Assembly (NCBI GenBank): GCA_023473795.1
Contig: JAMCYS010000152.1
Span: 1-25,755, forward strand
Source of the DNA: Chloroflexota bacterium
Lineage (GTDB): Bacteria; Chloroflexota; UBA6077; FW602-bin22; JAMCYS01
Direction of reading: 5' to 3'
Length of the DNA stretch: 25,755 nt
Numbering within the stretch: the first letter of the stretch is position 1; each line of letters opens with the position of its first letter. The position numbers were made by a program, and so were the translations under genes. Under the pieces are notes generated by a model that worked only from the letters and a program-made list of their open reading frames with translations, had not been told where the DNA came from and did not search any database. This document shows positions 2,458-22,027 of the stretch, one piece after another.

Positions 2458-3701
2458 GCGACCACAGGGAGGACGGCGAGGGACTGCAGGCGTACTACGA
2501 CGAGGCGCTGCGCTGCGTGCGCTGTGGGCTTTGCCAGGCGGTGTGCCCGGTGTACGCCGTGGAACAGAGCGAGGCCTCGGTTGCGCGCGGCAAGGTTCAG
2601 CTTGCCCGGGCCCTGCTGGAAGGCAGGCTGGAGCCGTCCCCCGCCGTGCGCGAGCGCCTCTTCCTCTGTCTCAACTGCGGCGCCTGCACGGCCAACTGCC
2701 CCAGCGGCGTCAACGTGGCCAAGTTGATGCTCGCCACACGGGCCCAGTTGCTGCGGGACGTCGGCCGGCCCGCCGTAGAAGGGTTGTTGTTACGTCAAGT
2801 TCTGGCCAATCCCCGCTCGCTGGGTCTGGCCGGGGCGGGGCTCGCCCTCTACCGGCGCAGCGGTTTGCGCTGGCTGGCCCACTACGTGGATGCCCTGGCC
2901 ACCCTACCGGCAGGGCTGGCGAAGGCGGAGGCGATGCTCCCCTCCCGGAGCCGCAGCCGGCCCAGGGTAGGACCGGCGCCAGAGCGCCCTCGCTACCGGG
3001 TCGCTTACTTCGCCGGCTGCGTCACCTCGGTGCTGTACCCGGACCTGGCCCAGTCGGTGGTCGCCGTGCTGCGGCAGGAAGGCTGCCAGGTCGTACTGCC
3101 ACGCGGTCTGGGGTGTTGCGGCACACCGCACCGTGCCTACGGCGACGCAGCGGCGGCCCAGAAGCTGGCAGATCGCAATACGCGGGCCCTGAACGAGGCG
3201 AGCGTCGAGGCTGTCGTCACCGACTGCGCGACCTGCGGGGCCGGCCTCAAGGATTACTCCGGCCTACGAGTGCCCGTCTACGACGTCAGCCAGTTCCTGG
3301 TGGAGGAGGCCGGCCTAGTGGCGCCGCGACGGCCACTGGCAGTGCGCGTCACCTATCACGACCCTTGCCATCTAGCTCGCGGCCAGGGAGTGCGCGAGGC
3401 GCCGCGGCGGCTTCTGCGGGCTATACCGGGGTTGGATCTAGTGGAGATGGCGGAAGCCGACCGCTGCTGCGGCGGCGCCGGCACCTTTGCCCTGACCCAC
3501 CCCGAGACCTCGCTGCGCATACTCGAACGCAAAGTGGCCAACGCCGCCGCCACGGGGGCCGCAATCGTCGCCTCCGGCTGTCCTGCCTGCTTGCTGCAAA
3601 TCGGCTATGGGCTGGGGCGACTGGCGGCCGGCGGTCAGGACGGCCCCCGCGAGGCGCTACATCCAGTCGAACTACTGGCGCAGGCCTATGCTCCGCCCTA
3701 G
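2454..3701 (+). CDS. glcF: Glycolate oxidase iron-sulfur subunit GlcF-like (2x 4Fe-4S ferredoxin motifs plus two CCG cysteine-rich domains)
   Basis: The protein has CVRCGLCQAVCP and CLNCGACTANCP ferredoxin motifs. Downstream are two CCG domains (GCCGTP and DRCCGGAG). It is translationally coupled to the upstream FAD subunit. Confidence 0.85.
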   Translation: MSDHREDGEGLQAYYDEALRCVRCGLCQAVCPVYAVEQSEASVARGKVQLARALLEGRLEPSPAVRERLFLCLNCGACTANCPSGVNVAKLMLATRAQLLRDVGRPAVEGLLLRQVLANPRSLGLAGAGLALYRRSGLRWLAHYVDALATLPAGLAKAEAMLPSRSRSRPRVGPAPERPRYRVAYFAGCVTSVLYPDLAQSVVAVLRQEGCQVVLPRGLGCCGTPHRAYGDAAAAQKLADRNTRALNEASVEAVVTDCATCGAGLKDYSGLRVPVYDVSQFLVEEAGLVAPRRPLAVRVTYHDPCHLARGQGVREAPRRLLRAIPGLDLVEMAEADRCCGGAGTFALTHPETSLRILERKVANAAATGAAIVASGCPACLLQIGYGLGRLAAGGQDGPREALHPVELLAQAYAPP

Positions 3702-4228: not shown

Positions 4229-5395
4229 CTACCAGGCGCGCCGATAGATGTCCAGCACTTCCTTTTCGGTAAGCCTGCGGGGGTTGTTGTCCATCAGGCG
4301 CGCCGTGGCCATGGCGCCGGGCACGAAGGCCTCGACCGCCGAGTCCGGCACGCCCACGTCGCGCATGCGCTGCGGAATGCCCACGTCCTGTGACAACTTG
4401 CGCACCGCCTCCACTGCCTTGTAGGCCGCCTCGCGCGGGCAGAGGCCGTCCAGGCACTCCCCCATCGCCTCGGCGACCTTAGCGAACTTGGGGATGTCGG
4501 CCAGGTAATTGTACTCCAGTACGTAGGGCATCATCATCGCATTGGAAACGCCGTGGGCCACTCGGTACGTGCCGCCCAGCGGGTAGGCCAGGGCGTGCAC
4601 CGAGCCGGCGCTGGCGTTGGCCAGGGCGATGCCGGCGTCGAGGCTGCCCAGGGCCATGTCGTAGCGCGCCTGCAGGTCGCCCCCGCGGCAGACGGCAGTG
4701 CGCAGGCTCTTGGCAATCAGCCGGATGGACTCCAAGGACCACAGCTCGGTCAGCGGCGTGGCCTTGACGGCCGTGTAGGACTCGATGGCGTGCGTGAGGG
4801 CATCCATGCCGGTGGCAGCGGTCACCGAGGGCGGCATGCTCACGGTCAGCAGTGGGTCGACGATGGCCACGTCGGCCAGACAATGCGGGCTCACGGTGCC
4901 GACTTTGAGCTTCTGCTCTACGTCCAGGAAGACCGCGTTGTTAGAGATCTCAGCGCCCGTACCGGCGGTGGTTGCAACCAGTATGTAGGGCAGGCCGCGC
5001 TGGGGCACCTTGTCGATGCCGAAATAGTCGCGGATCGAGCCGCCATTCTTGAGAAGGACGGACACGCCCTTGGTGGTGTCCATGGCGCTGCCGCCGCCGA
5101 CGCCGACGAGCAGGTCGAACCCGCCCTGGCGCACCCACTCCACGCAGCGGTCGAGGCTGGCCACGGTCGGCTCCGGCTCAACCTGGTCGTAGACCTCGGC
5201 TGTCAAACTGGCCTTGGACAGTATGCCCTGTATCTGAGCTGCTAGCCCGGCCTTCGCCACCCCAGGGTCGCAGATGATCACCGGTCGCTTGGCCTGGCAG
5301 CGAACCGCTTCGTCGGCGACCTTGTTGACGGCATCGATGCCAAAGTAGATAGTAGCCGGCAGGCGAAATGGCAGAACCTGAGTCGGTAGCACCAT
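4229..5395 (-). CDS. Iron-containing (group III) alcohol dehydrogenase, e.g. 1,2-/1,3-propanediol or butanol dehydrogenase type
   Basis: The GGGSAMD metal/NAD motif is present, and the His-rich metal site and overall 388-aa length match the Fe-ADH family. Confidence 0.85.
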   Translation of the reverse strand: MVLPTQVLPFRLPATIYFGIDAVNKVADEAVRCQAKRPVIICDPGVAKAGLAAQIQGILSKASLTAEVYDQVEPEPTVASLDRCVEWVRQGGFDLLVGVGGGSAMDTTKGVSVLLKNGGSIRDYFGIDKVPQRGLPYILVATTAGTGAEISNNAVFLDVEQKLKVGTVSPHCLADVAIVDPLLTVSMPPSVTAATGMDALTHAIESYTAVKATPLTELWSLESIRLIAKSLRTAVCRGGDLQARYDMALGSLDAGIALANASAGSVHALAYPLGGTYRVAHGVSNAMMMPYVLEYNYLADIPKFAKVAEAMGECLDGLCPREAAYKAVEAVRKLSQDVGIPQRMRDVGVPDSAVEAFVPGAMATARLMDNNPRRLTEKEVLDIYRRAW

Positions 5396-5592: not shown

Positions 5593-6003
5593 CTAAGCCG
5601 GCTGGCCGGCCAAACGGGCGCGGATGAAGTTGGCGATGTCGGCAGTGGAGCTGCCGGGGCCGAAGGTCGCCGCCACACCCATTTCCTGCAAGGCGCGCAT
5701 GTCCTCGTCGGGTATGATCCCGCCCACGAGGACGACGATGTCCGTCAGCTGCTTCTGCCGCACCAACTCCATTACGCGCGGTACCAGGTCCATATGCGCC
5801 CCGGAGAGGATGCTCAAGCCAATGACGTCGGCGTCTTCCTGCAGCGCCGACTCGACGACCATTTCGGGGGTCTGCCTGAGCCCGGTGTAGATCACCTCCA
5901 TCCCGGCGTCGCGCAGCGCCCGGGCGAGGACCTTGACCCCCCGGTCGTGGCCATCCAGCCCCGGCTTGGCCAGCAGTACCCTGATTTTGCCTCTCTCAAC
6001 CAT
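5593..6003 (-). CDS. icmB: Coenzyme-B12-binding small subunit of a split acyl-CoA mutase (IcmB-like, 136 aa), with DxHxxG motif (DGHDRG)
   Basis: ATG at 6003..6001 is preceded by GAGAGGTG. The ORF-track start at 6012 is GTG without an RBS. Rossmann-like B12-domain motifs are present ([14 protein letters not shown]). Confidence 0.8.
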
Positions 6004-6037
6004 GGTCCACACCTCTCACGTGCTGAGAGCCGAGGCC

Positions 6038-7711
6038 CTAGAGCACCGGCACCTCCATATAGGATCCGTAGACCTCGCGCAGCGCCTGAGTCATCTCGCC
6101 CAGCGTGCAATAAGCACGCACCGCGTCCAGCAGATAGGGCATCACGTTCTCCCCAGCCGCGGCCGCCTTGCTCAGAGCGCGCAGGCAGCGCTCGGCCTGC
6201 GCCCGGTCGCGCCGGCGGCGCACCTCCGCCAGGCGCGCCAGCTGCCGGCGCTCGCCCTCGGGGTCCATGCGCAGCAGAGGCACCTGCACCGGCTCGTCCG
6301 TGGTAAAGCCGTTGACCCCCACGACGATGCGCTCCCCGCTCTCCACTTCTTGCTGGTAGCGGAACGATGCCTCGGCGATCTCCTGTTGCGGGTAGTTGAC
6401 GCCAATCGCCGCCACCATCCCGCCCAGACGGTCGATGCGCTCGATGTACTCACGCGCCTGGCGCTCCAGCTCGTCGGTCAACGCTTCGACGAAGTACGAT
6501 CCCCCCAATGGATCGACGGTGTTCGTCACGCCGCTCTCATTGGCGATGATCTGCTGAGTGCGTAGGGCCACCCGCACGGCGCTTGCCGAGGGCAGGGCCA
6601 GGGCCTCGTCCATGGAATTAGTGTGCAGGGACTGGGTACCGCCCAGCACCGCCGCCAGGGCCTGCAGGGCCACCCGCACCACGTTGTTCTCCGGCTGCTG
6701 GGCCGTCAACGAACAGCCCGCCGTCTGGGTATGGAAGCGCAGCATCCAGGAGCTCGGGTCCTTGGCGCCGAAGCGCTCGCGCATGATCTTGGCCCATAGC
6801 CGCCGGGCCGCCCGGTACTTGGCGATCTCCTCAAAGAAGTCGCTATGGGCGTTGAAGAAGAACGAGAGCCGAGGGGCGAAGTCATCCAGGGCCAGGCCGC
6901 AGTCGAGCGACGCCTGCACGTAGGCGATGCCATCGGCCAGTGTGAAGGCCAGTTCCTGCGCCGCGGTCGAGCCGGCCTCCCGGATGTGATAGCCGCTGAT
7001 CGACACCGTGTTCCATTTGGGCAGGTGGCGGCTGCCAAATTCGATGGTGTCAATCACCAGTTTGAGCGCCGGCTCGGGCGGAAACAGGAACTCCTTCTGC
7101 GCTGTGTACTCTTTCAGGATGTCGTTCTGAAGGGTGCCGCCGAGCTCACCGAACGGGATGCCCTGCTTCTCGGCCGTCACCAGGTACATCGCCCAGATGA
7201 TGGCCGCTGGGCCGTTGATCGTCATCGAGGTCGTGACCTCGTCGAGGCGGATCCCATCGAAGAGGATTTCCATGTCGGCCAGCGAAGAAACGGCCACTCC
7301 GCACTTGCCGAACTCCCCCAGCGCCTGGGGGTCATCGGTGTCGAGCCCATACAGAGTCGGCATATCGAAAGCCACCGACAGGCCGCTCTCGCCGTGAGAC
7401 AGCAGGTATTTGAAGCGCTCGTTCGTTTCTTCAGCGGCGCCAAAGCCGGCGAACAGGCGCATCGTCCAGAGCCGGCCGCGATACATCGTGGGGTGGACGC
7501 CCCGGGTGAAGGGATACTCGCCGGGGAAACCGATTTCCCGCTGATAGGCGGCGACCTCGTCCGCCCCGGGCTCGTAGAGTCTCTGGGTCTGTACCCCGGA
7601 GATGGTGGTGAACTCAGATCGGCGCTCGGGCAGGCGCTCCAGCGACTTCGCCAGAGTAGTCTTCTCCCAGCGCGCGCGGTCGGCGGCGAGCCGTTCGCGG
7701 TCGTCCTGCAT
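6038..7711 (-). CDS. icmA: Acyl-CoA mutase large (catalytic TIM-barrel) subunit with an isobutyryl-CoA-mutase-type active-site signature. In methylmalonyl-CoA mutase the corresponding positions are Tyr89 and Arg207; here they are Phe (TMRLFAGFG) and Gln ([12 protein letters not shown]).
   Basis: Strong similarity to the methylmalonyl-CoA mutase alpha catalytic domain throughout ([33 protein letters not shown]). Specificity residues were read from the alignment-equivalent motifs. There is no C-terminal B12 domain, so this is a split enzyme. Confidence 0.8.
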
Positions 7712-7728
7712 GGCGGGCCTCCCCTAGC

Positions 7729-7788
7729 TGGGCGCTATACCAGCAATTGCCTGTGAGAAACGCTCTTCAATTTCAAGTATAGCGCCCA
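7729..7788. promoter_or_regulatory. 12-bp perfect inverted repeat TGGGCGCTATAC ... GTATAGCGCCCA flanking a 36-nt, comparatively AT-rich spacer, 18 nt upstream of the icmA start. On the minus strand the distal arm overlaps a TGGTATAGC extended -10-like element.
   Basis: Read directly (7729-7740 and 7777-7788). It lies in the 96-nt gap between the mce stop and the icmA start. Confidence 0.45.
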
Positions 7789-7807
7789 ACCTCAAACGGC
7801 TCCCAAC

Positions 7808-8230
7808 CTAGGTCTCAGGCTCGTGCCCCTTCTCCGCCAGCTCGACGAGCACGCCCCCGGTGGCTTTAGGGTGCAGAAAACCGACCCGCGAGCCGTGCGC
7901 GCCCGGCGCCGCCGCTCCCGAGCCGATCACCGCGCCCCGGGCCGATAGTTCGCCGAGCAGCTCGTCCAAACCTTCCACTTCCAGGCAGATGTGGTGTATG
8001 CCTTCACCACGCTTGTCGAGGTATTTGCCAACGGGGGTGTCCGGGCCGGTCGGCTCGAGCAATTCCAGCGTGGCCTCGCCCAGGGGCAGGAAGGCGACCT
8101 TCACCCCCTGGGCGGGCACGGTTTCGTAGTGATCGGCCGCGAGTCCTAGCGCCTCCTCGTAGAAGCGCACCGCTGCCTCCGCATCCCTGACGGCGATGCC
8201 GACGTGGTCGATCTTCTTGACACGTGGCAT
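7808..8230 (-). CDS. mce: Methylmalonyl-CoA epimerase (VOC/glyoxalase-fold)
   Basis: IDHVGIAVRD...HHICLEV...GGVLVEL metal-ligand pattern and 140-aa size. It is in the same operon context as a mutase. Confidence 0.8.
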   Translation of the reverse strand: MPRVKKIDHVGIAVRDAEAAVRFYEEALGLAADHYETVPAQGVKVAFLPLGEATLELLEPTGPDTPVGKYLDKRGEGIHHICLEVEGLDELLGELSARGAVIGSGAAAPGAHGSRVGFLHPKATGGVLVELAEKGHEPET

Positions 8231-8239
8231 TGGCGGAAC

Positions 8240-9757
8240 CTAGCCCTCGTGCCCGTTGCCGGCAGCCGGGGCCTTGGCAGTTGTGTCTTCCGCCTGCAAG
8301 TCGGCTAACGCCGGTATCTTGCGCAGAACGTCCTGCAACTTGAGCCCGGTGAGCGCCTCGATAACCGCCGGCATCTGGGCCATGATCTCGGTTATGTCCC
8401 GCGTAATCTTAGACGCTCCAGCGCCGTGACCGTCAGATCCGCCAATCATGACGATGCGGTCCGTCTTGCTGAGTGGTTCGGCGACGGCCCTGGCCAGCTC
8501 CGGCAGGCGCTCGACGATCATCTGGATTATGGCCGCCTCGTTGTACTCGTGCCAAGCCTCCGCCTTGCTCGACATAGCCGTCGCCTCGGCCGCGCCACGG
8601 GCCTTGGTCACGTCGGCGGCGGTCAGGCCGCGCGCGCGCTCGATGTCGACCTGCGCCAGGCCCTGCGCCCGCTCGGCGTCGGCCTGGCCCTGGCCCATCA
8701 GCCTTGCCGCCTCGGACTTGCCAGTCGCCTCGGCCCGCAGCTTGTACTGCTCGGCCTCGGCCAGCGTCTGGATACGAGTGCGCTCCGCCTCGGCCGGTTT
8801 CTGGACGTTGGCGACCAGTTCCCGCTCCCGACGGGCAACTTCCTTCTCCTGAACCAGGGTCTCCTGTTCCTTCTGGACTATCTGGACCTTCACCTCTTCG
8901 GCCTTGACGAGCTGCTCCGTCTTGTACTTCTGCAGGTCGTAGGCGAGGTCGGCCTCAGCCTTCTGCTGGTTGACTAGCATGTTGTACTGAGCGACCTTGA
9001 CGTTGTAGTCACGCTGCGACTCAGCAATTTTGGTCTGGGCCTCGATCTCGCCGATCTTGCCCAGCTGTTCGGCCTGCGCCCGCTTGATCTGGGTCTCCCG
9101 AGCGGCCTCGGCCTCGGCGATGGCCGCGTCGCGGCGCACCTCGGCGATGCGCGGCTTGCCCAGGGCCTCCAGGTAGCCCTGCTTGTCGTGCACGTCCTTG
9201 ATGGTGAAACTGATGACGGTGAAGCCCATGTTGCTGAAGTCGGTCGAGGATACTTCCTGTACCCGCTGGGCGAAGGCCTCGCGATTACGATAGACTTCCT
9301 CGACGGTCATCGTACCCATAATGGCCCGCAAGTGGCCCTCGAGGGTTTGCTTGACGACCTCTTTGCGCTCCTCGACGTTCTTGGAGAGGAACTGCTCTGC
9401 CGCGGTCGCGATCGAAACCAGGTCGCTTTGCACTTTGATCTGGGCCACGCCTTCCACGATGATGGGCACACCTTGCGAGGTGTAGACGTCCGGCGTGCCC
9501 ACGTCGATGGTCATCGTCTCCATCGACAGGGTCTTGAACGACTCGACGACCGGCATGACTATCGTGCCGCCGCCGCGCACGATGCGAAAGCCGACGTCCC
9601 GCGCCTGCCCACTCTCGTCGCGCAGCTTGCCGCCCCGACCATAGATGATCAGCGCCTCGTTGGGACCGACCTTACGATAGCGCGAGGCTGCCAACGCTAT
9701 GAGAAGAAAGATGCCTAGGACGATGCCTGCCACTAGCAGCGTGCTGGTGAAATCCAC
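8240..9757 (-). CDS. floT: Flotillin-like SPFH/band-7 protein (FloT/YuaG type) with N-terminal membrane anchor and Ala/Glu-rich coiled coil
   Basis: Close resemblance to B. subtilis YuaG along the SPFH domain (IVRGGGT, IATAAEQFL, GHLRAIMGTMTVEEVYRNRE, LGKPRIAEV). GTG start at 9757. The upstream nfeD partner is present. Confidence 0.9.
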   Translation of the reverse strand: MDFTSTLLVAGIVLGIFLLIALAASRYRKVGPNEALIIYGRGGKLRDESGQARDVGFRIVRGGGTIVMPVVESFKTLSMETMTIDVGTPDVYTSQGVPIIVEGVAQIKVQSDLVSIATAAEQFLSKNVEERKEVVKQTLEGHLRAIMGTMTVEEVYRNREAFAQRVQEVSSTDFSNMGFTVISFTIKDVHDKQGYLEALGKPRIAEVRRDAAIAEAEAARETQIKRAQAEQLGKIGEIEAQTKIAESQRDYNVKVAQYNMLVNQQKAEADLAYDLQKYKTEQLVKAEEVKVQIVQKEQETLVQEKEVARRERELVANVQKPAEAERTRIQTLAEAEQYKLRAEATGKSEAARLMGQGQADAERAQGLAQVDIERARGLTAADVTKARGAAEATAMSSKAEAWHEYNEAAIIQMIVERLPELARAVAEPLSKTDRIVMIGGSDGHGAGASKITRDITEIMAQMPAVIEALTGLKLQDVLRKIPALADLQAEDTTAKAPAAGNGHEG

Positions 9758-9822
9758 TTAGTTCACCCTCCCTTTGCGACACTCGAATGCCCGCCCGAAC
9801 GACGGCTACGAACCCGCCAACT

Positions 9823-10449
9823 CTACCCCTCGTCAGAGGCCGAACCGAGGGCCTCGTCCTCCATTGACACTACCTCGGCCACACCCTTGTGTAAGCGTAC
9901 GATCGCCACCCTCGTGCCACTGGCCAAGGGCACGCCGCTGGCAGACCGCGCCGGCAATTGCATGCGGCTGCCACGGGCGGAGAAGACGATCTCGCCCAGC
10001 CCCTCGGCCGGAATGCTGACCCGCACCTTGGCCAGAGCCTGGGCCACCTCTCTCATGTCCGGCGAGCTACTGCCCTGGGCCCTCACTAGCGGCCGCCACA
10101 CCGCTAGGAAGAATGCCCCGGCAACCAGTACCGCCCCGACCGTGGCGAGAAGGAGCGAAAGCCAATCGGGCAGGCCAATATACCTGTAGGTCAACAGGCC
10201 AATGCCCCCCACGGCCAGAGAGAAAGCCGCTATGGTAAGAGAGTTGACCGGGGATACATGGTGGGCGCCGACGTCGTGGCCAGCGTCAAGCTCGTGCCCG
10301 CCGCCCAAGTCGTGCGACAAGTCCACGTCGTGGCCGCCGGCTATGTCGTGGCCGCCCAGACCACCGGCGAGCAAGCCGAACACGCCGTAGCCGAGCCCAA
10401 AGAGGAACGCCACCCAATAGAACAGTTCCAGCCCGTTTAGCCCACCCAT
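9823..10449 (-). CDS. nfeD: NfeD/YuaF-like membrane protein (3 TM segments plus C-terminal OB-fold beta-barrel), partner of flotillin. It contains an unusual His/Asp-rich GHD repeat loop.
   Basis: TM helices plus C-terminal VRVSIPAEGLGEIVFSARGSRMQLPARS...VAIVRLHKGVAEVV OB-like domain. Gene order nfeD-floT matches yuaF-yuaG. Strong RBS GGGAGGAGGG before ATG 10449. Confidence 0.75.
   Translation of the reverse strand: MGGLNGLELFYWVAFLFGLGYGVFGLLAGGLGGHDIAGGHDVDLSHDLGGGHELDAGHDVGAHHVSPVNSLTIAAFSLAVGGIGLLTYRYIGLPDWLSLLLATVGAVLVAGAFFLAVWRPLVRAQGSSSPDMREVAQALAKVRVSIPAEGLGEIVFSARGSRMQLPARSASGVPLASGTRVAIVRLHKGVAEVVSMEDEALGSASDEG
10255..10356 (-). repeat. In-frame nucleotide tandem repeats GTCGTG(G/C)CC(GCC) encoding GHD/HD units (GGHDIAGGHDVDLSHDLGGGHELDAGHDVGAHH) inside nfeD
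   Basis: gtcgtggcc/gtcgtgccc/gtcgtgcga motifs recur about 6 times at roughly 18-21 nt spacing on the plus strand. Their reverse complement encodes Gly-His-Asp. Confidence 0.6.
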
Positions 10450-10472
10450 GCCACCCTCCTCCCGCGGGCGCC

Positions 10473-11227
10473 CTAGCCGCGTTTGCCCTCGCGGTACTCC
10501 TGAGCGTAGCGCCGGTTGTTGCTGACCACCTGAGCGGCGAAGTCCCGCAGGTGATTCGTCACCGGCGCCAGCGACCGAGCCCGCTCCGGCGTGTCCACGA
10601 TCGCCCCTGCCGGCACCAGGCGCCCATCCGGTATCTCTACGTCGGAGATGAACGCGCCGTGCCAGACTACGCAGCCGCGTCCGATCGTGCTGTTCACCAC
10701 CATCGTCCGAAAGCCGACGAAAGCACCGTCGCCGATAGCCACCGGGCCGTGCACGAACGCTTGGTGGGCCAAGGATACGTTCTTCCCGACCCAGACGGCA
10801 TACTGCTGGCCGCCCACGACAACCGAGCGCCCTTCCATGGCGTGGACGACGACCCCGTCCTGCACGTTACTACCATCGCCAATGGCTATCGGCGCCCCGC
10901 TGTCACCCCTGATTGAGGACCCCGGGGCGACGAAGACCTCGGCCCCCAATTGTACGTCGCCCACCACGCTCGCGGCAGGACTGATGAAGGCGCCCCGACC
11001 GAGGCGAACGGTGCGACCCACCTCTGCCGCCGGCATGGCGGCTGCCGCGGGTGGCGCGGGCCGGGCCGGAGGAGCAGCGACCGGCGTCTGAGCCGCAAAC
11101 GCCTCGCTCCCTGGGGCATCCGGCTCGGTTAGAGAACGCCCCAGGTTACCCCCGCCAGCCGGCAGGTCTGAGCCCGGCATGGGCATGTAGCCGATGGGCT
11201 GCATGCCCCCTTTGGGTTGGCCCTCGC

Positions 11228-11231
<4 letters not shown>
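10473..11231 (-). CDS. Gamma-class carbonic anhydrase family (left-handed beta-helix, hexapeptide repeat) protein with about 95-aa Pro/Ala-rich low-complexity N-terminal extension; all three Cam-type zinc-ligand His positions conserved
   Basis: [11 protein letters not shown] and [12 protein letters not shown] match the Cam motifs (H81, H117, H122 equivalents). The start ATG 11231..11229 overlaps the upstream mutase stop (ATGA). The ORF-track upstream extension has no RBS and is rejected. Confidence 0.75.
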
Positions 11232-12919
<1,688 letters not shown>

Positions 12920-12930
12920 CCAATCCTCGC

Positions 12931-13461
12931 CTATGAAACGATCGCCAGCACATCCCCGGCGTTCACCGTGGAGCCGGCGCTCACCGGCAAGGAGGTCACC
13001 CGGCCGGCGGCGGTGCTCTTGATCTCGTTTTCCATCTTCATGGCCTCGAGGACCACCAGCCCGGCGCCGTAGGCCACGTTGTCGCCCACTTTGACCTGCA
13101 CGCGCAGGATCTTGCCGGGCATCGGCGCCCGCATCACCGTGCCCGAGGCCGCGGGAGCCGTCGGCGCGGTGGCAGGAGCGGGTGACGTCCGCGGCCCCAC
13201 GGCTGCCGGGGCAGGGCGTGGGGCAGCAGGGGCGAGCGCCGGCGCGGGGCGGGTCGCCGAGTCCAGCCGAACCGCGTAGGTCTTGCCGTCCAGCGTCACC
13301 TGGTCGCCCTTCAGCTCGACCTGGAGCGTCTTGCCGCCCACCTCGACCGTGGCCGAGTTGCCGCGGCGGCGGGCGCTAGCGGGAACCGGTTTGCCGTCGA
13401 CAGTCACCTCGCCCGGTTTGACCGTGACCTCGTAGTCTTTGCCGTCGATCGTTATCTTCAC
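12931..13461 (-). CDS. Biotin carboxyl carrier subunit, transcarboxylase 1.3S / decarboxylase gamma type (N-terminal [12 protein letters not shown] domain, Ala/Pro linker, C-terminal biotinyl domain with EAMKM)
   Basis: AMKM biotinylation motif. The N-terminus resembles the P. shermanii 1.3S and GcdC N-termini. GTG start at 13461. Confidence 0.85.
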
Positions 13462-13476
13462 TGTCGCAACCTCACC

Positions 13477-14961
13477 CTACCTCATCAGTCCCAGACGGCC
13501 GGATAGCTTCCAGCCAGAGAGTCCGGCCAGGGCCTCGGGCACGCGCTCCCGCTGCGCCGGGGCGAGAAACGCCGCGGCAATGGCAGCGACCGTCTCCGCG
13601 TCCAGCTTGGGCTCGGGCTCAACCTCGCCCGCCCGCCGTTTGAAGAACTCCAGGGCCACCTGGGGGAAGATCGCGTAGGAGATCACGTCCTCGTCGCTCT
13701 GCGCATAGGGCTTGGACCCCTCCACGGCCTTGTCCCACTCGGGCTCCAACAGGTCGGCGGGGCGGACGTCGATCGTCTCCTCGCCGTCGATGGTCTTCTC
13801 CTTGATGGCAGGGTCGACCGGAATCGCTGGCCGGCCGTAGAACCCCTTCACGTACAGCTTGACCTCTTTGGGCACCATCTTGTAGCGCTCGCCCAGGAGG
13901 ACGTTCAGCACCGCCTGCGTGCCCACGATCTGACTGGAGGGGGTGACCAAAGGCGGGTAGCCAAGGTCCTGGCGCACCCGCGGCACCTCGGCCAGCACTT
14001 CCTTCAGGCGGTCTTCCGCCTTCTGCTCACGCAGCTGGGAGACTAGGTTAGAGATCATCCCGCCCGGAATCTGGAAGGTGAGCACGTTCGTATCGACGGG
14101 CGCCATACCCATCTCGAACTTGCCGTATTCCTTGCGTACCTTGCCGAAGTACTCCGCGATCTCCGACAGCAAATCGAGGTCGAGGCCCGTGTCGCGAGGC
14201 GTGCCCTTGAGCGCGGCCACAATGCTCTCCGTGGGCGGCTGACCAGAGCCCATCGAGATGCTGGAGATGGAGGTATCGACGACGTCGATGCCCGCTTCCG
14301 CCGCCTTGAGGTAGGCCATCGACGCCATACCGCTGGTGTAGTGGCAGTGCAACTGCACCGGCAGGCCGACCTTCTCCTTCAGCTGCTTGGTAAGATCGTA
14401 TGACTCGTAGGGGTCGATGAGACCGGCCATGTCCTTGATGCAGATCGAATCGGCGCCCATGTCGCGCAGCGTCTTGCCCATCTCCACAAACGTGTCGATG
14501 TTGTGGTAGGGGCTGCGCGTGTAGCAGATCGTCGCCTGCACGTGGCCGCCGACATGCTTAGTCACTTCCATCGCATAGCGCATGTTGCGCACGTCGTTCA
14601 AGGCGTCGAAGATGCGGAAGATGTCCATGCCATTTTCTTTGGCCTTGACGACGAAATGCTCCACGATGTCGTCGGCGTAGTTGCGGTAGCCGACGATGTT
14701 TTGGCCGCGCAACAGCATCTGCAGCTTAGTGTTCTTGAACGCCCCGCGCAGTTGGCGCAGGCGCTCCCAGGGGTCTTCGTTCAAGAAGCGCATGCAACTG
14801 TCGAAAGTCGCGCCGCCCCAGACCTCGAGGGAGTGGTAACCCACCCTGTCCAGCTTCTCGGCAATGGGCAGCATGTGCTCGATGCGCATGCGCGTCGCCA
14901 GCAGCGATTGGTGCGCGTCGCGCAGGATTGTGTCGGTGATGCCGAGCGGGTTCTTCTCCAC
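13477..14961 (-). CDS. Transcarboxylase 5S subunit / oxaloacetate-decarboxylase-alpha-type carboxyltransferase (pyruvate carboxyltransferase TIM barrel, no fused biotinyl domain)
   Basis: ILRDAHQSL, IKDMAG (carbamyl-Lys motif) and LHCHYTSG metal-site motifs. The 494-aa length matches the 5S subunit. Confidence 0.9.
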   Translation of the reverse strand: MEKNPLGITDTILRDAHQSLLATRMRIEHMLPIAEKLDRVGYHSLEVWGGATFDSCMRFLNEDPWERLRQLRGAFKNTKLQMLLRGQNIVGYRNYADDIVEHFVVKAKENGMDIFRIFDALNDVRNMRYAMEVTKHVGGHVQATICYTRSPYHNIDTFVEMGKTLRDMGADSICIKDMAGLIDPYESYDLTKQLKEKVGLPVQLHCHYTSGMASMAYLKAAEAGIDVVDTSISSISMGSGQPPTESIVAALKGTPRDTGLDLDLLSEIAEYFGKVRKEYGKFEMGMAPVDTNVLTFQIPGGMISNLVSQLREQKAEDRLKEVLAEVPRVRQDLGYPPLVTPSSQIVGTQAVLNVLLGERYKMVPKEVKLYVKGFYGRPAIPVDPAIKEKTIDGEETIDVRPADLLEPEWDKAVEGSKPYAQSDEDVISYAIFPQVALEFFKRRAGEVEPEPKLDAETVAAIAAAFLAPAQRERVPEALAGLSGWKLSGRLGLMR

Positions 14962-14979
14962 TGCTTCCTCCTTCCGATC

Positions 14980-16539
14980 CTACAGCGGTATATTGCCGTG
15001 CTTCTTCGGCGGCAGGGTATCGCGTTTGTCCTTGAGCATCTCCAGGGCGGCGATCAGCTTGGGCCTGGTGTAGCGAGGCTGGATCACATCGTCCAACAAG
15101 CCGTGGGCCGCGGCGACGTACGGGTTGGCGAACTTGTCGCGGTACTGCTGCACCTTCTCCTGCAAAGTAGCCTCAGGGTCGGGCGAGGACTCGATCTCCC
15201 GCCGGAAGAGGATGTTGGCCGCCCCGTCGGGGCCCATCACCGCGATTTCGGCCGTGGGCCAGGCGAGGTTGATATCGCCGCGCAGGGCCTTGCTACTCAT
15301 GACGATGTAGGCACCGCCGTAGGCCTTGCGCGTGATCAGCGAAATCTTGGGCACGGTCGCCTCGCTGTAAGCGTAAATCATTTTGGCCCCATGACGAATG
15401 ATACCGCCCTGCTCCTGGTCGAGACCAGGCATGAAGCCCGGCACGTCGGCGATGGTGACGAGCGGCACGTTGAAGCAGTCGCAGAAGCGAACGAAGCGCG
15501 CTGCCTTGTCGGAGGCGTTGATATCGATGACCCCCGCTAGCACCTTGGGCTGCTGCGCCACTACGCCCACCGGCCGCCCGCCGAGACGCGCGAAGCCGAC
15601 GATCATGTTCTGGGCGAACTCCTTGTGGACCTCGAACAGGTCCCCGTCGTCCACGATGCGACCGATCACTTCCAGCATATCGTAGGGTTGGTTAGGGGAA
15701 TCCGGGATCAGCACGTCCAGCTCGGGGTCCGTGCGATCCGCCGGATCGAGCGAGACTCCCAGGGGCGGGTCGTCCATATTGTTGGAGGGCAGGAAGCCGA
15801 GCAGGCGGCGGATGTCCTGCAGGCAGGTCTGCTCGTCCGGCTCGGCGAAATGGGCGACGCCGCTGATGCCGGCGTGCGTCTGTGCCCCGCCCAGCTGATC
15901 GAAGCTGACGTCCTCATGGGTGACCGCCTTGACCACGGCCGGGCCGGTGATAAACATGTGGCTAGTGCCATTGACCATAAACACGAAGTCCGTCAGGGCC
16001 GGCGAGTAGCAGGCGCCGCCGGCCGAGGGGCCGAGGATGGCCGAGACCTGGGGAATGACGCCCGAGGCCAGCGTGTTGCGCAGGAAGATCTCGGCGTAGC
16101 CGGCAAGGCTGAGCACGCCCTCCTGGATGCGCGCGCCGCCGGAGTCGTTCAGCCCGATCAACGGCGCCCCGTTCTTCATCGACAGGTCCATCACCTTGCA
16201 GATCTTGTTGGCATGCACCTCGGACAATGAGCCGCCGAAGACGGTGAAGTCCTGCGAAAATACGTACACCAGTCTGCCGTCCACCTTGCCAAAGCCCGTG
16301 ACCACGCTGTCGCCTAGGTACTGCTGCTCGGCCAGCCCGAAGTCGGTGCAGCGATGCAGGACAAACTGATCCAGCTCGCTGAACGAACCGGGATCGAGCA
16401 AGGCGTCGATCCGTTCGCGGGCGGTCAGCTTGCCTCTCTTGTGCTGCTGCTCGACGCGCTGGGGGCCGCCACCCTGCTCCGCCTGCCGCTGCAGTTCCCG
16501 CAGCTCGGAGATGCGATTGGCCTCAACCATACTGTTCAC
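14980..16539 (-). CDS. Methylmalonyl-CoA carboxyltransferase 12S subunit (propionyl-CoA carboxylase beta family)
   Basis: High similarity to the P. shermanii 12S subunit, including the C-terminal KKHGNIPL. Carboxyltransferase motifs are present ([22 protein letters not shown]). The annotated start is GTG at 16539. ATG at 16530 (MVEANRI) has a better-spaced GAGGTGA RBS and may be the true start. Confidence 0.9.
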
Positions 16540-16563: not shown

Positions 16564-17433
16564 CTAGGTGCCATACTCGTAGAAGCCGCGGCCGGACTTG
16601 CGTCCCAGGTGTCCCGCCTCGACCATCCGGTGTAGCAGAGGGCAGGGGCGGTACTTGGAATCGCCGAAGCCCCGGTGCAGCACCTCCATCACCTGTAAAC
16701 ACACATCCAGACCAATCAGATCGGCCAACTGTAGCGGGCCAAGCGGATGATTCATCCCCAGGTGCATGACGGTGTCGATGGCCTCCCGCTGGGCAACGCC
16801 CTCCATGAGGCAGTAGATGGCTTCGTTGATCATCGGCATGAGCACCCGGTTGGACACGAAGCCTGGATAGTCGTTCACCGCCACCGGCGTCTTGCCCAGG
16901 CGCTCCGCCAGCTGCTGTACCAACCCCATGGTGGCGTCGCTCGTCAGTTCGCCGCGCACCACTTCCACTAGCGCCATCACGGGCACCGGGTTGAAGAAGT
17001 GCATGCCGACCACCTGACCCGGCCGCCGCGTTCCGGCCCCCAAGGTAGTGACGGAGATCGAGGAGGTGTTGGAGGCCAGGACGGCCTCATGGCGGCACAA
17101 GGCGTCCAGGCGCCGGAAGACGTCAATCTTGACCGGCAACTGCTCCACCGCCGCCTCGACCACCAGGTCGCAGCGGGACAGGTCCTCCAAAGACAGAGAA
17201 GGGGCAATGCCGGCCAGCGCCGCCTCGCGTGCCGCCGGTTCGAGGCGCCCCTTGTCCACGGCGCGGTCGAGGTTGCGCCGGATGGTGGCCAGGCCGCGGT
17301 CGAGGGCGGCCCGGTCCACCTCGACCAGGGTCACGGCGAAGCCGGCACCGGCGAACACCTGGGCAATGCCGTTGCCCATAGTACCTGCCCCAACCACCCC
17401 AACCTTCCGAATCTCCTCAGCTTCCATTGCCAT
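16564..17433 (-). CDS. hbd: 3-hydroxybutyryl-CoA / 3-hydroxyacyl-CoA dehydrogenase (NAD-binding)
   Basis: KVGVVGAGTMGNGIAQVFA Rossmann motif and typical Hbd length. The start is probably ATG 17433 or 17427 (AGGAAAGG RBS). The GTG at 17463 in the ORF track is less likely. Confidence 0.85.
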   Translation of the reverse strand: MAMEAEEIRKVGVVGAGTMGNGIAQVFAGAGFAVTLVEVDRAALDRGLATIRRNLDRAVDKGRLEPAAREAALAGIAPSLSLEDLSRCDLVVEAAVEQLPVKIDVFRRLDALCRHEAVLASNTSSISVTTLGAGTRRPGQVVGMHFFNPVPVMALVEVVRGELTSDATMGLVQQLAERLGKTPVAVNDYPGFVSNRVLMPMINEAIYCLMEGVAQREAIDTVMHLGMNHPLGPLQLADLIGLDVCLQVMEVLHRGFGDSKYRPCPLLHRMVEAGHLGRKSGRGFYEYGT

Positions 17434-17483
17434 CCTTTCCTGGTCCAACGGGAGACGAACCACGGATCAACGCGGATCCTGGA

Positions 17484-17611: not shown

Positions 17612-18802
17612 CTAGGCTAACTCGACGCTCAGGGCGACGGCCTCGCCCCCGCCGAGGCAGGCCACGGCCAGGCCGCGTTCGCCGCCTCGCTGGCGCAAGG
17701 CATAGATCAGTGTCGTCAAGATGCGCGCGCCGCTGGCGCCGATAGGATGGCCCAAGGCCACCGCGCCGCCGTGGACGTTTACCTTCTGCCAATCCCAGCC
17801 CAAGTCCTTGCCGTTGGCCAGCACCTGGGAGGCGAAGGCTTCGTTGATCTCGATGAGGTCGAAATCGTTCAGACCCAGACCGGTCTGGGACAGCAGTTTG
17901 CGAATGGCCAGCGGCGGGGCAGCGAAGAGCAGCAGCGGCTCCAGGGCAGCCGTGGCATAGCCCGTGACGCGCGCCAGCGCGGGCAGGCCGAGCTCCCGGC
18001 CGCGCCCGCCCTCGACTACCACTAGGGCGGCGGCGCCGTCGCTCAGGCCGGGGGCGTTGCCGGCCGTCACCGTGCCGCCCTCCGGCTGGAAGGCCGGCTG
18101 CAGACGCGCGAGCGCCTCCAGGCTCGTGTCGGGGCGGGGCGTCTCGTCGGCGGCGACGACCACGCTGCCCTTCTTCTGCGGCACCTCGACCGGAACGATC
18201 TCCGCCGCGAACCGGCCCGACGACGCCGCGGCGACGGCCTTGCGGTGGCTCGCCAGGGCGAACTCGTCCTGTTCGCGACGGCTAATACCATAGAGCTTGG
18301 CGATGTGTTCGGCGGAGTTGCCCATGTGGTGGTGCTCGAATGAGCACCAGAGGCCATCGTGTACCGTGGCGTCTACGATCTCGCCGTTGCCCAGACGGTA
18401 GCCGGTGCGGGCACGGGGCAGTAGGTAGGGGCCGTTGCTCATGCTCTCCATGCCCCCAGCCACGTAGATGGAGCCGTCTCCGGCCTTGATGGCTTGCGCC
18501 GCCAGCATGACCGCCTTCAGGCCCGAACCGCAGACCTTGTTGACGGTGACGGCCGGCACGCTCACGGGCACACCAGCCCGGACCGCGGCCTGGCGAGCAG
18601 GGGCCATGCCCACGCCCGCCTGGACGACGTTGCCCATTATCACTTCGTCCACGGCGGCGGGGTCGACACCCGCCCGGCGGATAGATTCACGAATGGCGAC
18701 GGCGCCCAACTCGGGCGCCGTTAGTGGTTGGAGGGCACCGAGGAAACGGCCCGTGGGAATGCGCGCGGCACTAGCGATCACAACCTTAGGGGAGTCCGCC
18801 AT
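17612..18802 (-). CDS. Acetyl-CoA C-acetyltransferase (thiolase II)
   Basis: VNKVCGSGLKAV (nucleophilic Cys), GHPIGASGARIL (His) and C-terminal Cys in ACLGGGEAVA. ATG at 18802 with GGGAGGAAGG RBS. The 25-aa ORF-track extension is rejected. Confidence 0.9.
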   Translation of the reverse strand: MADSPKVVIASAARIPTGRFLGALQPLTAPELGAVAIRESIRRAGVDPAAVDEVIMGNVVQAGVGMAPARQAAVRAGVPVSVPAVTVNKVCGSGLKAVMLAAQAIKAGDGSIYVAGGMESMSNGPYLLPRARTGYRLGNGEIVDATVHDGLWCSFEHHHMGNSAEHIAKLYGISRREQDEFALASHRKAVAAASSGRFAAEIVPVEVPQKKGSVVVAADETPRPDTSLEALARLQPAFQPEGGTVTAGNAPGLSDGAAALVVVEGGRGRELGLPALARVTGYATAALEPLLLFAAPPLAIRKLLSQTGLGLNDFDLIEINEAFASQVLANGKDLGWDWQKVNVHGGAVALGHPIGASGARILTTLIYALRQRGGERGLAVACLGGGEAVALSVELA

Positions 18803-18867
18803 TGCCTTCCTCCCTTGACGCAACTCCGCGCCTCGCCGTGCAGCGTCTGGCCCTGGGTATCCCGCAC

Positions 18868-18876
18868 ATAATAGCA
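18868..18876 (-). promoter_or_regulatory. Extended -10-like element TGCTATTAT (minus strand) about 66 nt upstream of the thiolase ATG
   Basis: Plus-strand ataatagca at 18868-18876. There is no clear -35, consistent with an extended -10 promoter. Inference only. Confidence 0.3.
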
Positions 18877-18963
18877 CAACGCAACCTGCCCCGCCAGAAC
18901 GAAGATCCCCTTCCCGCTAGGCAGGAAGGGGGTTGTCAGTAACCAGCAGATGTTGGTCTGTTG

Positions 18964-21212: not shown

Positions 21213-21914
21213 TCAGTCGCCGAACGTGCCGCCGGCGCTGGCCAGCGCGGCCTCCAGGTCTTGCCTGGTGTGCTGGTGATGCCAGCGGAGACGGCGCTCG
21301 GCCTCAGCCGCATCGCCCGCGAGGAAGGCGGCGAGAATCTCCTTGTGCTCCAGGTGGCCGGCAAGCGGTCTGCCGGGCACGTCGAAGGCCCGCCAGCGGA
21401 TCATCAGGAACTGGTCGTGCATGTTCTCGAAAACGCGCAGCAAGCGGCGGTTGCCCGAGGCCTGCACGAGCAGGCGGTGCAACTCCATGTCCAGGCGGCT
21501 GAAGCCCCGCTGATCGCGAGCCGCCACAAGCGGTTCCGCCTCCGCCACCAGCTCCGCGAGGCGACGGTCCAGCCCCGGCGTGCGCCTCTGTAAGGCCCGC
21601 ACGATAGCGTGCGCCTCCAGGACCTCACGGACCTCCAACACCTCGCGAATGTCCTCGGCGGTAATGGAGACGACGACGGCGCCCCGCCGGGGCAGGTACT
21701 GCACCAGGCCCTCCCGTTCCAGGCGCGAGATGGCCTCACGCACCGGCGTGTTGGAGACGCCAATCTGTTCGGCCAGGGCAGCCTCGGTGAGGCGGGAGCC
21801 GGCAGCCAGGGTATTCTCGATGATGGCGGTCTTGAGGGTGGCGTAGACCGAGTCGGTCAGGTTGAGATGGCGCTCGACCCGGGGTAGACTCAACAGCTCC
21901 ACTGGCACCTCCAA
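21213..21914 (-). CDS. GntR-family transcriptional regulator with FadR-type C-terminal (FCD) ligand-binding domain
   Basis: N-terminal wHTH (SRLTEAALAEQIGVSNTPVREAISRLEREGLV) plus C-terminal all-helical FCD-like region. The start may be GTG 21908 (better-spaced GGAAG RBS) rather than TTG 21914. Confidence 0.85.
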   Translation of the reverse strand: MEVPVELLSLPRVERHLNLTDSVYATLKTAIIENTLAAGSRLTEAALAEQIGVSNTPVREAISRLEREGLVQYLPRRGAVVVSITAEDIREVLEVREVLEAHAIVRALQRRTPGLDRRLAELVAEAEPLVAARDQRGFSRLDMELHRLLVQASGNRRLLRVFENMHDQFLMIRWRAFDVPGRPLAGHLEHKEILAAFLAGDAAEAERRLRWHHQHTRQDLEAALASAGGTFGD

Positions 21915-21945
21915 GCTTCCAACGGGGAAAACCGTCTATAGTAGG

Positions 21946-21966
21946 CAGCATACAGCGGGTATGCTG
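21946..21966. promoter_or_regulatory. 8-bp perfect inverted repeat CAGCATAC-agcgg-GTATGCTG between the MFS stop and the GntR start; candidate GntR autoregulatory operator or MFS terminator hairpin
   Basis: Read directly. It is located 32-52 nt upstream of the GntR start codon. Confidence 0.35.
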
Positions 21967-22027
21967 TCCTGTCAAGCAAGGCCAGGGCATCCACCGCTTT
22001 CCGCGGGGGCGCGGCGCCCGGCGACGG

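Follow-up and report, generated by a model that had tools for sequence, protein, structure and literature searches.

Conserved placement of a flotillin/NfeD gene pair between methylmalonyl-CoA mutase and epimerase genes in an uncultured Chloroflexota clade

Organization of the locus

We analysed a contig of 25,755 nucleotides from a Chloroflexota bacterium (JAMCYS010000152.1; hereafter the window, meaning this whole stretch of DNA), in which the gene pair nfeD-floT, encoding a flotillin and its NfeD partner, lies between the genes of a methylmalonyl-CoA mutase (mcmA1) and a methylmalonyl-CoA epimerase (mce). A preliminary description of positions 8240-16539 had proposed that the genes 12S-5S-1.3S-mcmA-gammaCA-nfeD-floT-mce follow each other on the minus strand, with 12S, 5S and 1.3S denoting the subunits of a transcarboxylase and gammaCA a gene resembling gamma-class carbonic anhydrases (CAs). 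When recomputed, this order and all seven gaps (18, 15, 11, -4, 23, 65 and 9 nt) were exact, and the ATG of the gamma-CA-like gene overlaps the mcmA1 stop codon as ATGA (-4 nt). The epimerase gene lies just beyond the described range. Downstream of it, we additionally found a gene for a second mutase resembling isobutyryl-CoA mutase (Icm) and a gene for a B12-binding subunit. Among the open reading frames (ORFs) of the window, the minus-strand run from the thiolase gene through the iron alcohol dehydrogenase gene is uninterrupted and comprises, from 5' to 3':

17612-18877, minus strand: thiolase (thl), by Pfam and NCBIfam matches
16564-17463, minus strand: 3-hydroxybutyryl-CoA dehydrogenase (hbd), by Pfam and NCBIfam matches
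14980-16539, minus strand: 12S-like carboxyltransferase of the PccB/MmdA family (PF01039)
13477-14961, minus strand: 5S-like pyruvate/oxaloacetate carboxyltransferase without a biotin-carrier domain (PF00682 and PF02436)
12931-13461, minus strand: 1.3S-like biotin carboxyl carrier protein (PF00364)
11228-12919, minus strand: mcmA1, methylmalonyl-CoA mutase catalytic subunit without a fused B12 domain (PF01642)
10473-11231, minus strand: gamma-CA-like protein of the Cam/CcmM type, by matches to solved structures
9823-10449, minus strand: YuaF-type NfeD2 of 208 amino acids, by family profile and predicted fold
8240-9757, minus strand: FloT-like flotillin of the SPFH2 family (PF01145)
7808-8230, minus strand: mce, methylmalonyl-CoA epimerase (TIGR03081)
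7712-7807, minus strand: conserved intergenic element after mce, a promoter-like motif and/or structured leader
6038-7711, minus strand: mcmA2, second acyl-CoA mutase catalytic subunit, Icm-like (PF01642)
5593-6012, minus strand: B12-binding small subunit of the mutase(s) (PF02310)
4229-5395, minus strand: iron alcohol dehydrogenase, the end of the listed run

Conservation of the arrangement in a single clade

The same arrangement occurs in nine distinct metagenomic contigs: the window, L003, L004, L005/L006 (one contig), L007, L008, L013, L115 and the P0006 contig. The FloT proteins of these relatives are 71-87% identical, and all FloT homologs in this range with a readable genomic context show the same arrangement. 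Thus, the synteny did not arise by accident in a single genome. L003, L004, L005/L006 and L007 contain all genes from thiolase to the B12-binding subunit in the same order, except that L004 lacks mcmA2. The assembly of L008 is ridden with frameshifts, with the order unchanged. L013, a species representative labelled Dehalococcoidales, has neither the gamma-CA-like gene nor mcmA2, and thl and hbd are not upstream of its 12S gene. L115 shows the gamma-CA-like gene, nfeD, floT and mce. On the P0006 contig, the stop codon of floT and the start codon of mce share one base, and a gene on the opposite strand follows. An inorganic pyrophosphatase gene comes after mce in L007, L008 and L013.

The invariant core is formed by mcmA1, nfeD, floT and mce, and according to the gene calls the gap between floT and mce ranges from -17 to +11 nt across the clade. 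With mce either overlapping floT or beginning no more than 11 nt behind it, a transcript that extends through floT would be the only source of the epimerase. All operon genes are under purifying selection, with pairwise ratios of nonsynonymous to synonymous substitution rates (dN/dS) of 0.07-0.24 for floT, 0.11-0.34 for nfeD and 0.07-0.17 for 12S, 5S and mcmA1, at dS values of about 0.7-1.6. Furthermore, the identity levels of floT and nfeD go up and down in step with those of the flanking enzymes. Purifying selection and parallel identity levels together indicate a functional cassette that was passed on vertically along with the operon. A recent horizontal transfer of the cassette was considered and dismissed, since the G+C content at third codon positions gives no clear foreign signature (0.79 for the gamma-CA-like gene and nfeD, 0.84 for floT and 0.82-0.88 for the neighbours).

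Our literature searches covered flotillin with methylmalonyl-CoA, the operon neighbourhoods of NfeD, CA with NfeD or SPFH proteins and transcarboxylase in Chloroflexi, and the arrangement was not found described in these searches. In line with the preliminary description, which had called it undescribed, full-text searches did not return any publication that connects bacterial methylmalonyl-CoA genes with flotillin or NfeD.

Signals of transcription

A scan for consensus signals in the window found no terminator between mcmA1 and mce, and there is no conserved promoter in this region. Co-transcription, which the preliminary description had held to be almost unavoidable, is thus the default reading, and the sequence makes it probable that nfeD-floT is transcribed together with the pathway genes. 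The sole good hairpin found on the minus strand lies at 18931-18907, just upstream of thl, and probably closes the gene preceding thl. The thiolase and 3-hydroxybutyryl-CoA dehydrogenase genes probably head the same transcription unit as the genes from 12S to mce; the gap between hbd and 12S is 24 nt. A promoter-like match inside floT (window 8555-8526, 10/12) falls on the conserved coding motif AWHEYNEAAIIQ, and L003, L004 and L005 do not preserve the hexamers of the match. Since the coding motif is conserved whereas the hexamers are not, we treated this match as a chance occurrence.

Alternatively, nfeD and floT, with mce trailing, could have a promoter of their own, in which case the embedding would be positional and flotillin expression would be uncoupled from the carboxyltransferase and mutase genes. 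In favour of such a promoter, two lineages have a wide spacing ahead of nfeD, with 163 nt in L007 and at least 66 nt in L013. The spacer between mcmA1 and nfeD in L013 contains a CAGTATAGTT motif resembling the promoter-like TAYACTT found after mce in other loci, and it also contains a GGGGTCAGC...GCTGACCCC hairpin. Because of the former motif, there may be an internal promoter upstream of nfeD in the L013 lineage. However, the spacer is only 23-25 nt long in the window, L003, L004 and L005, where it holds just a ribosome-binding site, and in the window, L007 and L013 the scan reported neither a consensus promoter nor a consensus terminator ahead of nfeD. Moreover, mce would be co-transcribed with floT even given an internal promoter. 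We consider an uncoupled flotillin quite unlikely. A terminator in the 163-nt spacer of L007 was rejected, as the spacer does not fold more stably than shuffled sequence (z = -0.77) and the scan reported none there.

The element of about 95 nt that follows mce carries a promoter-like TTGGAG-N18/19-TAYACTT motif. Further copies are found in L003 (12160-12258), L004 (11943-12040), L005 (12042-12136) and, partially, L007 (about 11936-11990). RNAalifold predicts a long stem with an inner hairpin, in which three pairs are changed on both sides among four sequences (weak covariation), and the element matches no Rfam family at gathering score. Should the element act as a promoter, nfeD, floT and mce would close the first transcription unit, followed by a second one made up of the genes of the Icm-like mutase and the B12-binding subunit. 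An Rfam scan of the window and five relatives found nothing in or near the operon; overall, it returned a molybdenum-cofactor riboswitch in L004 and a tRNA in L013. The riboswitch (RF01055, 63.5 bits) lies at 15771-15924 on the minus strand of L004, upstream of an MFS_MOT1 transporter gene.

The flotillin and its NfeD partner

The preliminary naming of the two genes as flotillin and nfeD was borne out, with different evidence for each. FloT matches PF01145 (Band_7, the SPFH domain) with 112.6 bits (cut-off 23.6). The match to PF15975 (Flot) reaches 24.8 bits and stays under the cut-off of 27, and close homologs have a precomputed PF15975 match. The NCBIfam FloT model NF058507 aligns end to end (residues 10-481) with 495.8 bits, under its cut-off of 700. 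Thus, the profile scores indicate a flotillin-family SPFH protein and not an equivalog of Bacillus subtilis FloT. Residues 1-28 form its sole hydrophobic membrane anchor (mean Kyte-Doolittle hydropathy 2.8), and residues 201-400 are rich in Ala, Glu and Gln. The gene of the NfeD partner lies directly upstream, ending 65 nt ahead of the floT start. In the database, the FloT of the window is annotated merely as 'SPFH domain-containing protein [Chloroflexota bacterium]', and the two genes upstream of floT are annotated as hypothetical proteins.

The 208-residue NfeD gave no match in our local Pfam search, in which PF01957 (NfeD) was not hit even at E-values up to 10; only one of eight aligned family members matched PF01957. 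YuaF-type members have been described as minimally conserved NfeD homologs (PMC2636767), so that the missing match is expected. A precomputed Pfam match exists to PF25842 (NfeD_TM). A profile of the protein and its homologs matches the soluble domain of B. subtilis YuaF (2K14, E 7.2e-8). Hydrophobic segments are found at residues 9-32, 68-88 and 91-124. The AlphaFold model, built with 19 database homologs and having a mean predicted local distance difference test (pLDDT) score of 74.5, places helices at 6-27, 70-91 and 95-128 and five strands within residues 139-195, with block-mean pLDDT values of about 86-92 over 141-190. Searching with this model, Foldseek retrieved YuaF (2K14, 3.2e-6), YbbJ from the QmcA-YbbJ complex (8Z5G, 2.2e-4) and Pyrococcus horikoshii 1510-C (3WWV, 8.4e-4). 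The profile match to YuaF and the Foldseek matches support the nfeD call, and profile and model together identify the protein as an NfeD2 of the YuaF type.

Two features of this NfeD stand out. An acidic C-terminal tail, SMEDEALG (within residues 196-208), is conserved in the clade and not in outgroup NfeD proteins. Residues 31-64, between helices 1 and 2, form a His/Asp-rich loop of low confidence with repeated GHD/HD motifs, which could bind metal. A further NfeD, P0145, with 43% identity, is encoded on a Chloroflexota contig of 485 kb.

The pair resembles B. subtilis yuaF-yuaG (nfeD2-floT) and Escherichia coli yqiJ-yqiK (Hinderhofer et al. 2009; PMC2636767), where nfeD likewise precedes the flotillin gene. 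Like YuaF, its closest solved relative, the NfeD has three N-terminal helices and a C-terminal oligonucleotide/oligosaccharide-binding (OB) fold, and like the YuaG-type flotillin, FloT combines an N-terminal anchor with an SPFH domain and a putative coiled-coil region rich in Ala and Glu. In contrast to yuaF-yuaG, the pair sits between mutase and epimerase genes, with gaps that are too short for signals of its own in most lineages. Furthermore, its FloT scores 495.8 against the NCBIfam cut-off of 700, and its NfeD carries the His/Asp-rich loop and the acidic tail.

Enzymes of the surrounding operon

The preliminary description had called the 12S, 5S and 1.3S genes a transcarboxylase. This holds at the level of domains, whereas none of the equivalog models was reached. 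The 12S-like protein matches PF01039 with 664 bits and TIGR01117 (mmdA) with 813 bits, under the cut-off of 998.8; its best solved relatives are PccB chains, with the transcarboxylase 12S subunit 1ON3 at 1.3e-175. The 5S-like protein combines an HMGL-like domain (PF00682) with PYC_OADA (PF02436) and reaches 611.7 bits with the 5S model NF008984 (cut-off 827). It is about equally similar to PycB (5KS8, 1e-165), OadA (2NX9, 6.4e-158) and the Propionibacterium 5S subunit (1RQB, 4.8e-153). The 1.3S-like protein has a Biotin_lipoyl domain (PF00364), a Pro/Ala linker and an EAMKME biotinylation motif with the AMKM core. We found no biotin carboxylase in the window or in any locus of the clade, and the presence of a shared biotin carrier without it argues for carboxyl transfer, which needs neither ATP nor bicarbonate. 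From gene content, we infer a putative transcarboxylase (EC 2.1.3.1), below the equivalog level. In Propionibacterium freudenreichii transcarboxylase and mmc-type methylmalonyl-CoA clusters, carboxyltransferases for methylmalonyl-CoA and for pyruvate and a small biotin carrier are likewise encoded beside mutase and epimerase genes, without a biotin carboxylase gene at the locus. In comparison with the P. freudenreichii subunits, PccB is the nearer relative of the 12S-like protein, and PycB and OadA are the nearer relatives of the 5S-like protein. In addition, the mutase is split into catalytic and B12 genes here, and genes for a membrane scaffold and a CA-like protein are interleaved.

McmA1 matches PF01642 with 760 bits and TIGR00641 with 794.7 bits. 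It carries the motifs RQYAGY and YARGTYIF, whose Tyr and Arg we take to mark specificity for methylmalonyl-CoA. McmA2 (PF01642, 730 bits) has RLFAGFG and TAQKEFLF at these places, and we take the Phe and Gln to mark Icm as opposed to methylmalonyl-CoA mutase; thus, McmA2 is Icm-like. The window encodes two catalytic subunits and a single B12-binding small subunit (PF02310, 99.7 bits), which is present in every full-length relative, including those without mcmA2. Mce exceeds the cut-off of its equivalog model (TIGR03081, 141.5 bits, cut-off 114.95).

A hydrophobicity scan of the operon proteins showed credible membrane segments in FloT and NfeD only. In McmA1, a lone window at residues 168-186 reached 1.70 against a threshold of 1.6 and was read as buried core. 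The preliminary description had also suggested a coupling to a membrane decarboxylase or ion pump encoded elsewhere. This idea found no support, as no OadB/MmdB-type subunit is present among the scanned ORFs of the window or the called genes of L003, L004, L005, L007 and L008, whose flanks were covered for up to about 10 kb per side.

Outgroups, sister operons and the origin of the insertion

To compare the clade with more distant relatives, we examined 25 outgroup flotillin loci from Armatimonadetes, Limnocylindrales, Anaerolineae, Planctomycetota and others, with FloT being 30-60% identical. None of them contains methylmalonyl-CoA genes (mutase, carboxyltransferase or epimerase), and at 49-60% FloT identity they have a plain pair with nfeD directly upstream of floT. 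Conversely, a metagenome scan anchored on mcmA1 found flotillin beside the mutase in none of 80 loci. The association of flotillin with methylmalonyl-CoA genes looks like a single evolutionary origin.

The nearest mcmA1 relatives (60-66% identical) have their operon backbone in common with the clade, consisting of carboxylase genes, mcmA1, mce, mcmA2 and the gene of the B12-binding subunit. In five of these sister loci (L038, L040, L042, L052 and L080), mcmA1 is directly followed by mce, with gaps of 46-97 nt in tblastn coordinates. Adjoining mcmA1 and mce are the ancestral state. Other sisters carry unrelated genes at this junction, namely an ORF of 153 residues with no assigned family in L033 and a putative helix-turn-helix regulator in L036 and L037. 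The junction is a permissive insertion site.

A biotin carboxylase is encoded in the sister loci L033, L038, L052 and L046. In L033 (504-4114), L038 (2505-6315) and L052 (3-3745), the order 12S, biotin carboxylase, biotin carrier corresponds to a propionyl-CoA carboxylase layout, and the biotin carboxylase gene occupies the position of 5S in the focal clade. The focal clade appears to have swapped an ATP-dependent carboxylase for the carboxyltransferase layout. Besides this swap of biotin carboxylase to 5S, the clade shows two further derived features, as it gained the gamma-CA-like gene and nfeD-floT.

These comparisons bear on the proposal of a membrane-tethered metabolon made in the preliminary description. 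FloT and NfeD would here recruit a complex of carboxyltransferase, mutase and epimerase to a membrane microdomain, where it could channel to or from fumarate reductase, a transporter or a sodium-pumping decarboxylase subunit encoded elsewhere. The conserved embedding and the tight floT-mce junction in all clade members are consistent with this proposal, as are the purifying selection on floT, which is as strong as that on the enzymes, and the acidic tail that sets the NfeD of the clade apart. A flotillin gene that stays clustered with a specific partner also has a precedent: in SAR11, HIMB59 and Pseudothioglobus, flotillin-associated rhodopsin clusters show conserved synteny and probable co-transcription with genes of other function (PMC10308929). 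In that case, the partner is a membrane protein and several distant taxa are involved, whereas here the partners are soluble enzymes and only one clade has the arrangement. The single origin speaks against the metabolon, as the association is seen in neither the outgroup flotillin loci nor the mutase-anchored loci, and the junction accepts unrelated inserts in sister lineages. Furthermore, the enzymes have no credible membrane segment or obvious clade-specific docking extension, no pump subunit is found in the window or the flanks of the five relatives, and flotillin clients known from bacteria are membrane proteins (PMC11222466). A physical or energetic coupling of the flotillin to the enzymes thus finds no support, and we regard a tethered metabolon as unlikely.

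A carbonic-anhydrase-like protein next to nfeD-floT

The gamma-CA-like protein has the hexapeptide fold, and its solved matches are CcmM (3KWC, 8.9e-45, the best) and Cam of Methanosarcina thermophila (1QRG, 7e-40). We aligned five clade members with a manually entered Cam sequence. In this alignment, H130, H156 and H161 are invariant and correspond to the three metal-binding residues His81, His117 and His122 of Cam. All five proteins have Ser or Thr at the position of Cam Glu62; four of them have a Glu aligned with Cam Glu84, and the acidic loop is missing. Glu62 and the proton-shuttle residue Glu84 are reported to be catalytically important in Cam, and CcmM209 is active despite a short acidic loop (PMC4519908). 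With Glu62 replaced and the acidic loop lost, CA activity of the protein is uncertain. It shares with Cam and CcmM the left-handed beta-helix, the three metal-binding His, Arg59, Asp61 and Gln75, and with CcmM the short form of the acidic loop. It differs from them by the change of Glu62 to Ser or Thr, an N-terminal extension of 75 residues, the lack of the RbcS-like repeats of CcmM and the location of its gene inside a biotin-enzyme/mutase operon. The extension contains the largely conserved motif GG[IM]QxIGY[IM]PMPG, which shows substitutions in L005 and L007 and is followed by a variable Pro/Ala linker. This N-terminal sequence could be a docking peptide.

The gamma-CA-like gene lies 8-25 nt upstream of nfeD in the window, L003, L004, L005 and L115, and 163 nt upstream in L007. 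Beta-class CA-like genes (Pro_CA, matches of about 41 bits) are also found near nfeD-floT outside the clade. A Limnocylindrales metagenome-assembled genome (MAG) has the order nfeD, floT, PLDc_N, Pro_CA with gaps of -4 and 9 nt (L011 9423-12621, equivalent to L012 5818-9016), and a Planctomycetota MAG has Pro_CA directly upstream of nfeD (L031 6599-10265). The reading frame of the latter CA appears damaged past residue ~140. CA-like genes of two classes thus lie near nfeD-floT in three unrelated lineages, which is more than we would expect by chance, albeit in a small sample, and which we take as a lead.

From these adjacencies, one could propose that the gamma-CA-like protein, NfeD and FloT form a membrane platform for CO2/bicarbonate or pH, which would have been recruited to an operon whose chemistry centres on carboxyl groups; the link to mutase and epimerase would be indirect. 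The close spacing upstream of nfeD in five of the loci is in favour of this proposal, and so is the N-terminal sequence, where a largely conserved peptide followed by a variable linker is the layout of a docking peptide. In the outgroups, CA-like genes lie one or two genes away from nfeD-floT in two of about 25 loci, compared to about 0.1 expected (our rough estimate, not computed). However, two of about 25 is also a small share of the outgroup loci, and the CA frame in one of them is the damaged one. L013 keeps mcmA1, nfeD, floT and mce without any CA gene; hence, the flotillin retains its place in the operon without a CA. Moreover, the gamma-CA-like protein lacks the Glu62 that is reported to be important for catalysis in Cam (PMC4519908), and we found no publication linking CA with NfeD or SPFH proteins. 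A CA/flotillin platform as the reason for the arrangement is therefore doubtful. A related idea is that FloT, NfeD and the gamma-CA-like protein build a membrane-attached SPFH platform or cage that recruits CO2 or carboxyl-transfer enzymes, with CAs being recurrent flotillin clients. Such a platform would amount to a carboxylation metabolon tethered to a prokaryotic membrane; we consider this idea rather improbable.

A probably captured nfeD-floT cassette

We favour, with a probability of roughly 0.55, the explanation that nfeD-floT is a captured and co-transcribed cassette that does an ordinary membrane job without touching the soluble enzymes. SPFH2/NfeD2 pairs are known as co-evolving, laterally transferred units, sometimes with extra genes (PMC2636767). 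A laterally mobile cassette of a YuaF-type nfeD and floT would have been inserted once into the short gap between mcmA1 and mce, in the ancestor of one uncultured Chloroflexota clade that some records label Dehalococcoidales; in most members, the gamma-CA-like gene of the Cam/CcmM type stands ahead of the pair. Since then, the cassette would have been inherited vertically and intact, and nfeD-floT would be transcribed by read-through from the operon. Given read-through to mce, flotillin and NfeD would be produced whenever the pathway operon is on. NfeD proteins bind the flotillin coiled coil via the OB-fold and stabilize the oligomers at the cytoplasmic face of the membrane (PMC11222466). By analogy, the pair most likely has this generic function here: NfeD would sit in the membrane and bind the flotillin with its OB-fold, and flotillin oligomers on the cytoplasmic face would organize or stabilize membrane proteins. 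FloT and NfeD would probably have no contact with the soluble carboxyltransferase, mutase and epimerase.

Several observations weigh against this explanation. FloT is kept as strictly as the enzymes at a synonymous divergence near saturation, and at least some of the nine lineages might have lost or relocated a passenger that was purely neutral. The floT-mce junction is consistently very tight. The exchange of biotin carboxylase for 5S and the gain of the gamma-CA-like gene in the same clade could reflect a new integrated function, and CA genes of another class beside nfeD-floT in two unrelated lineages hint that the neighbours of the pair are not always random.

What is novel at this locus is the context of two well-known systems, and it is confined to one uncultured Chloroflexota clade. 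We know of no well-defined physiological clients of bacterial flotillins outside a few model Firmicutes. Flotillin expression tied to one metabolic operon would thus offer a concrete and testable place to seek such clients, and the three lineages with a CA beside nfeD-floT offer another. If the link is only positional, the locus would be a clean case of a mobile two-gene cassette that was captured at a permissive junction and long retained. A practical consequence of read-through would be that flotillin levels follow the expression of the pathway.

Flanking genes and further observations

The operon is flanked by FAD-linked oxidase genes and a gene for an Fe-S/CCG-domain protein, of the glycolate or D-lactate dehydrogenase type (window 1171-3701, plus strand, and 21213-23254, minus strand). 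A GntR/FCD regulator and a major facilitator superfamily (MFS) transporter are also encoded in its flanks. Oxidase genes are found near the operon in L001, L004 and L005 as well, and the Fe-S/CCG gene only in L001. The flanking oxidase and Fe-S genes fit a lactate- or pyruvate-to-propionate context.

In the sister locus L037 (4507-6324), a cob(I)alamin adenosyltransferase-like gene with CobO-like ends is split by an insert of about 430 residues, which looks like an intein with a homing-endonuclease region. An uninterrupted homolog of 175 amino acids is present in L036 (3015-3542).

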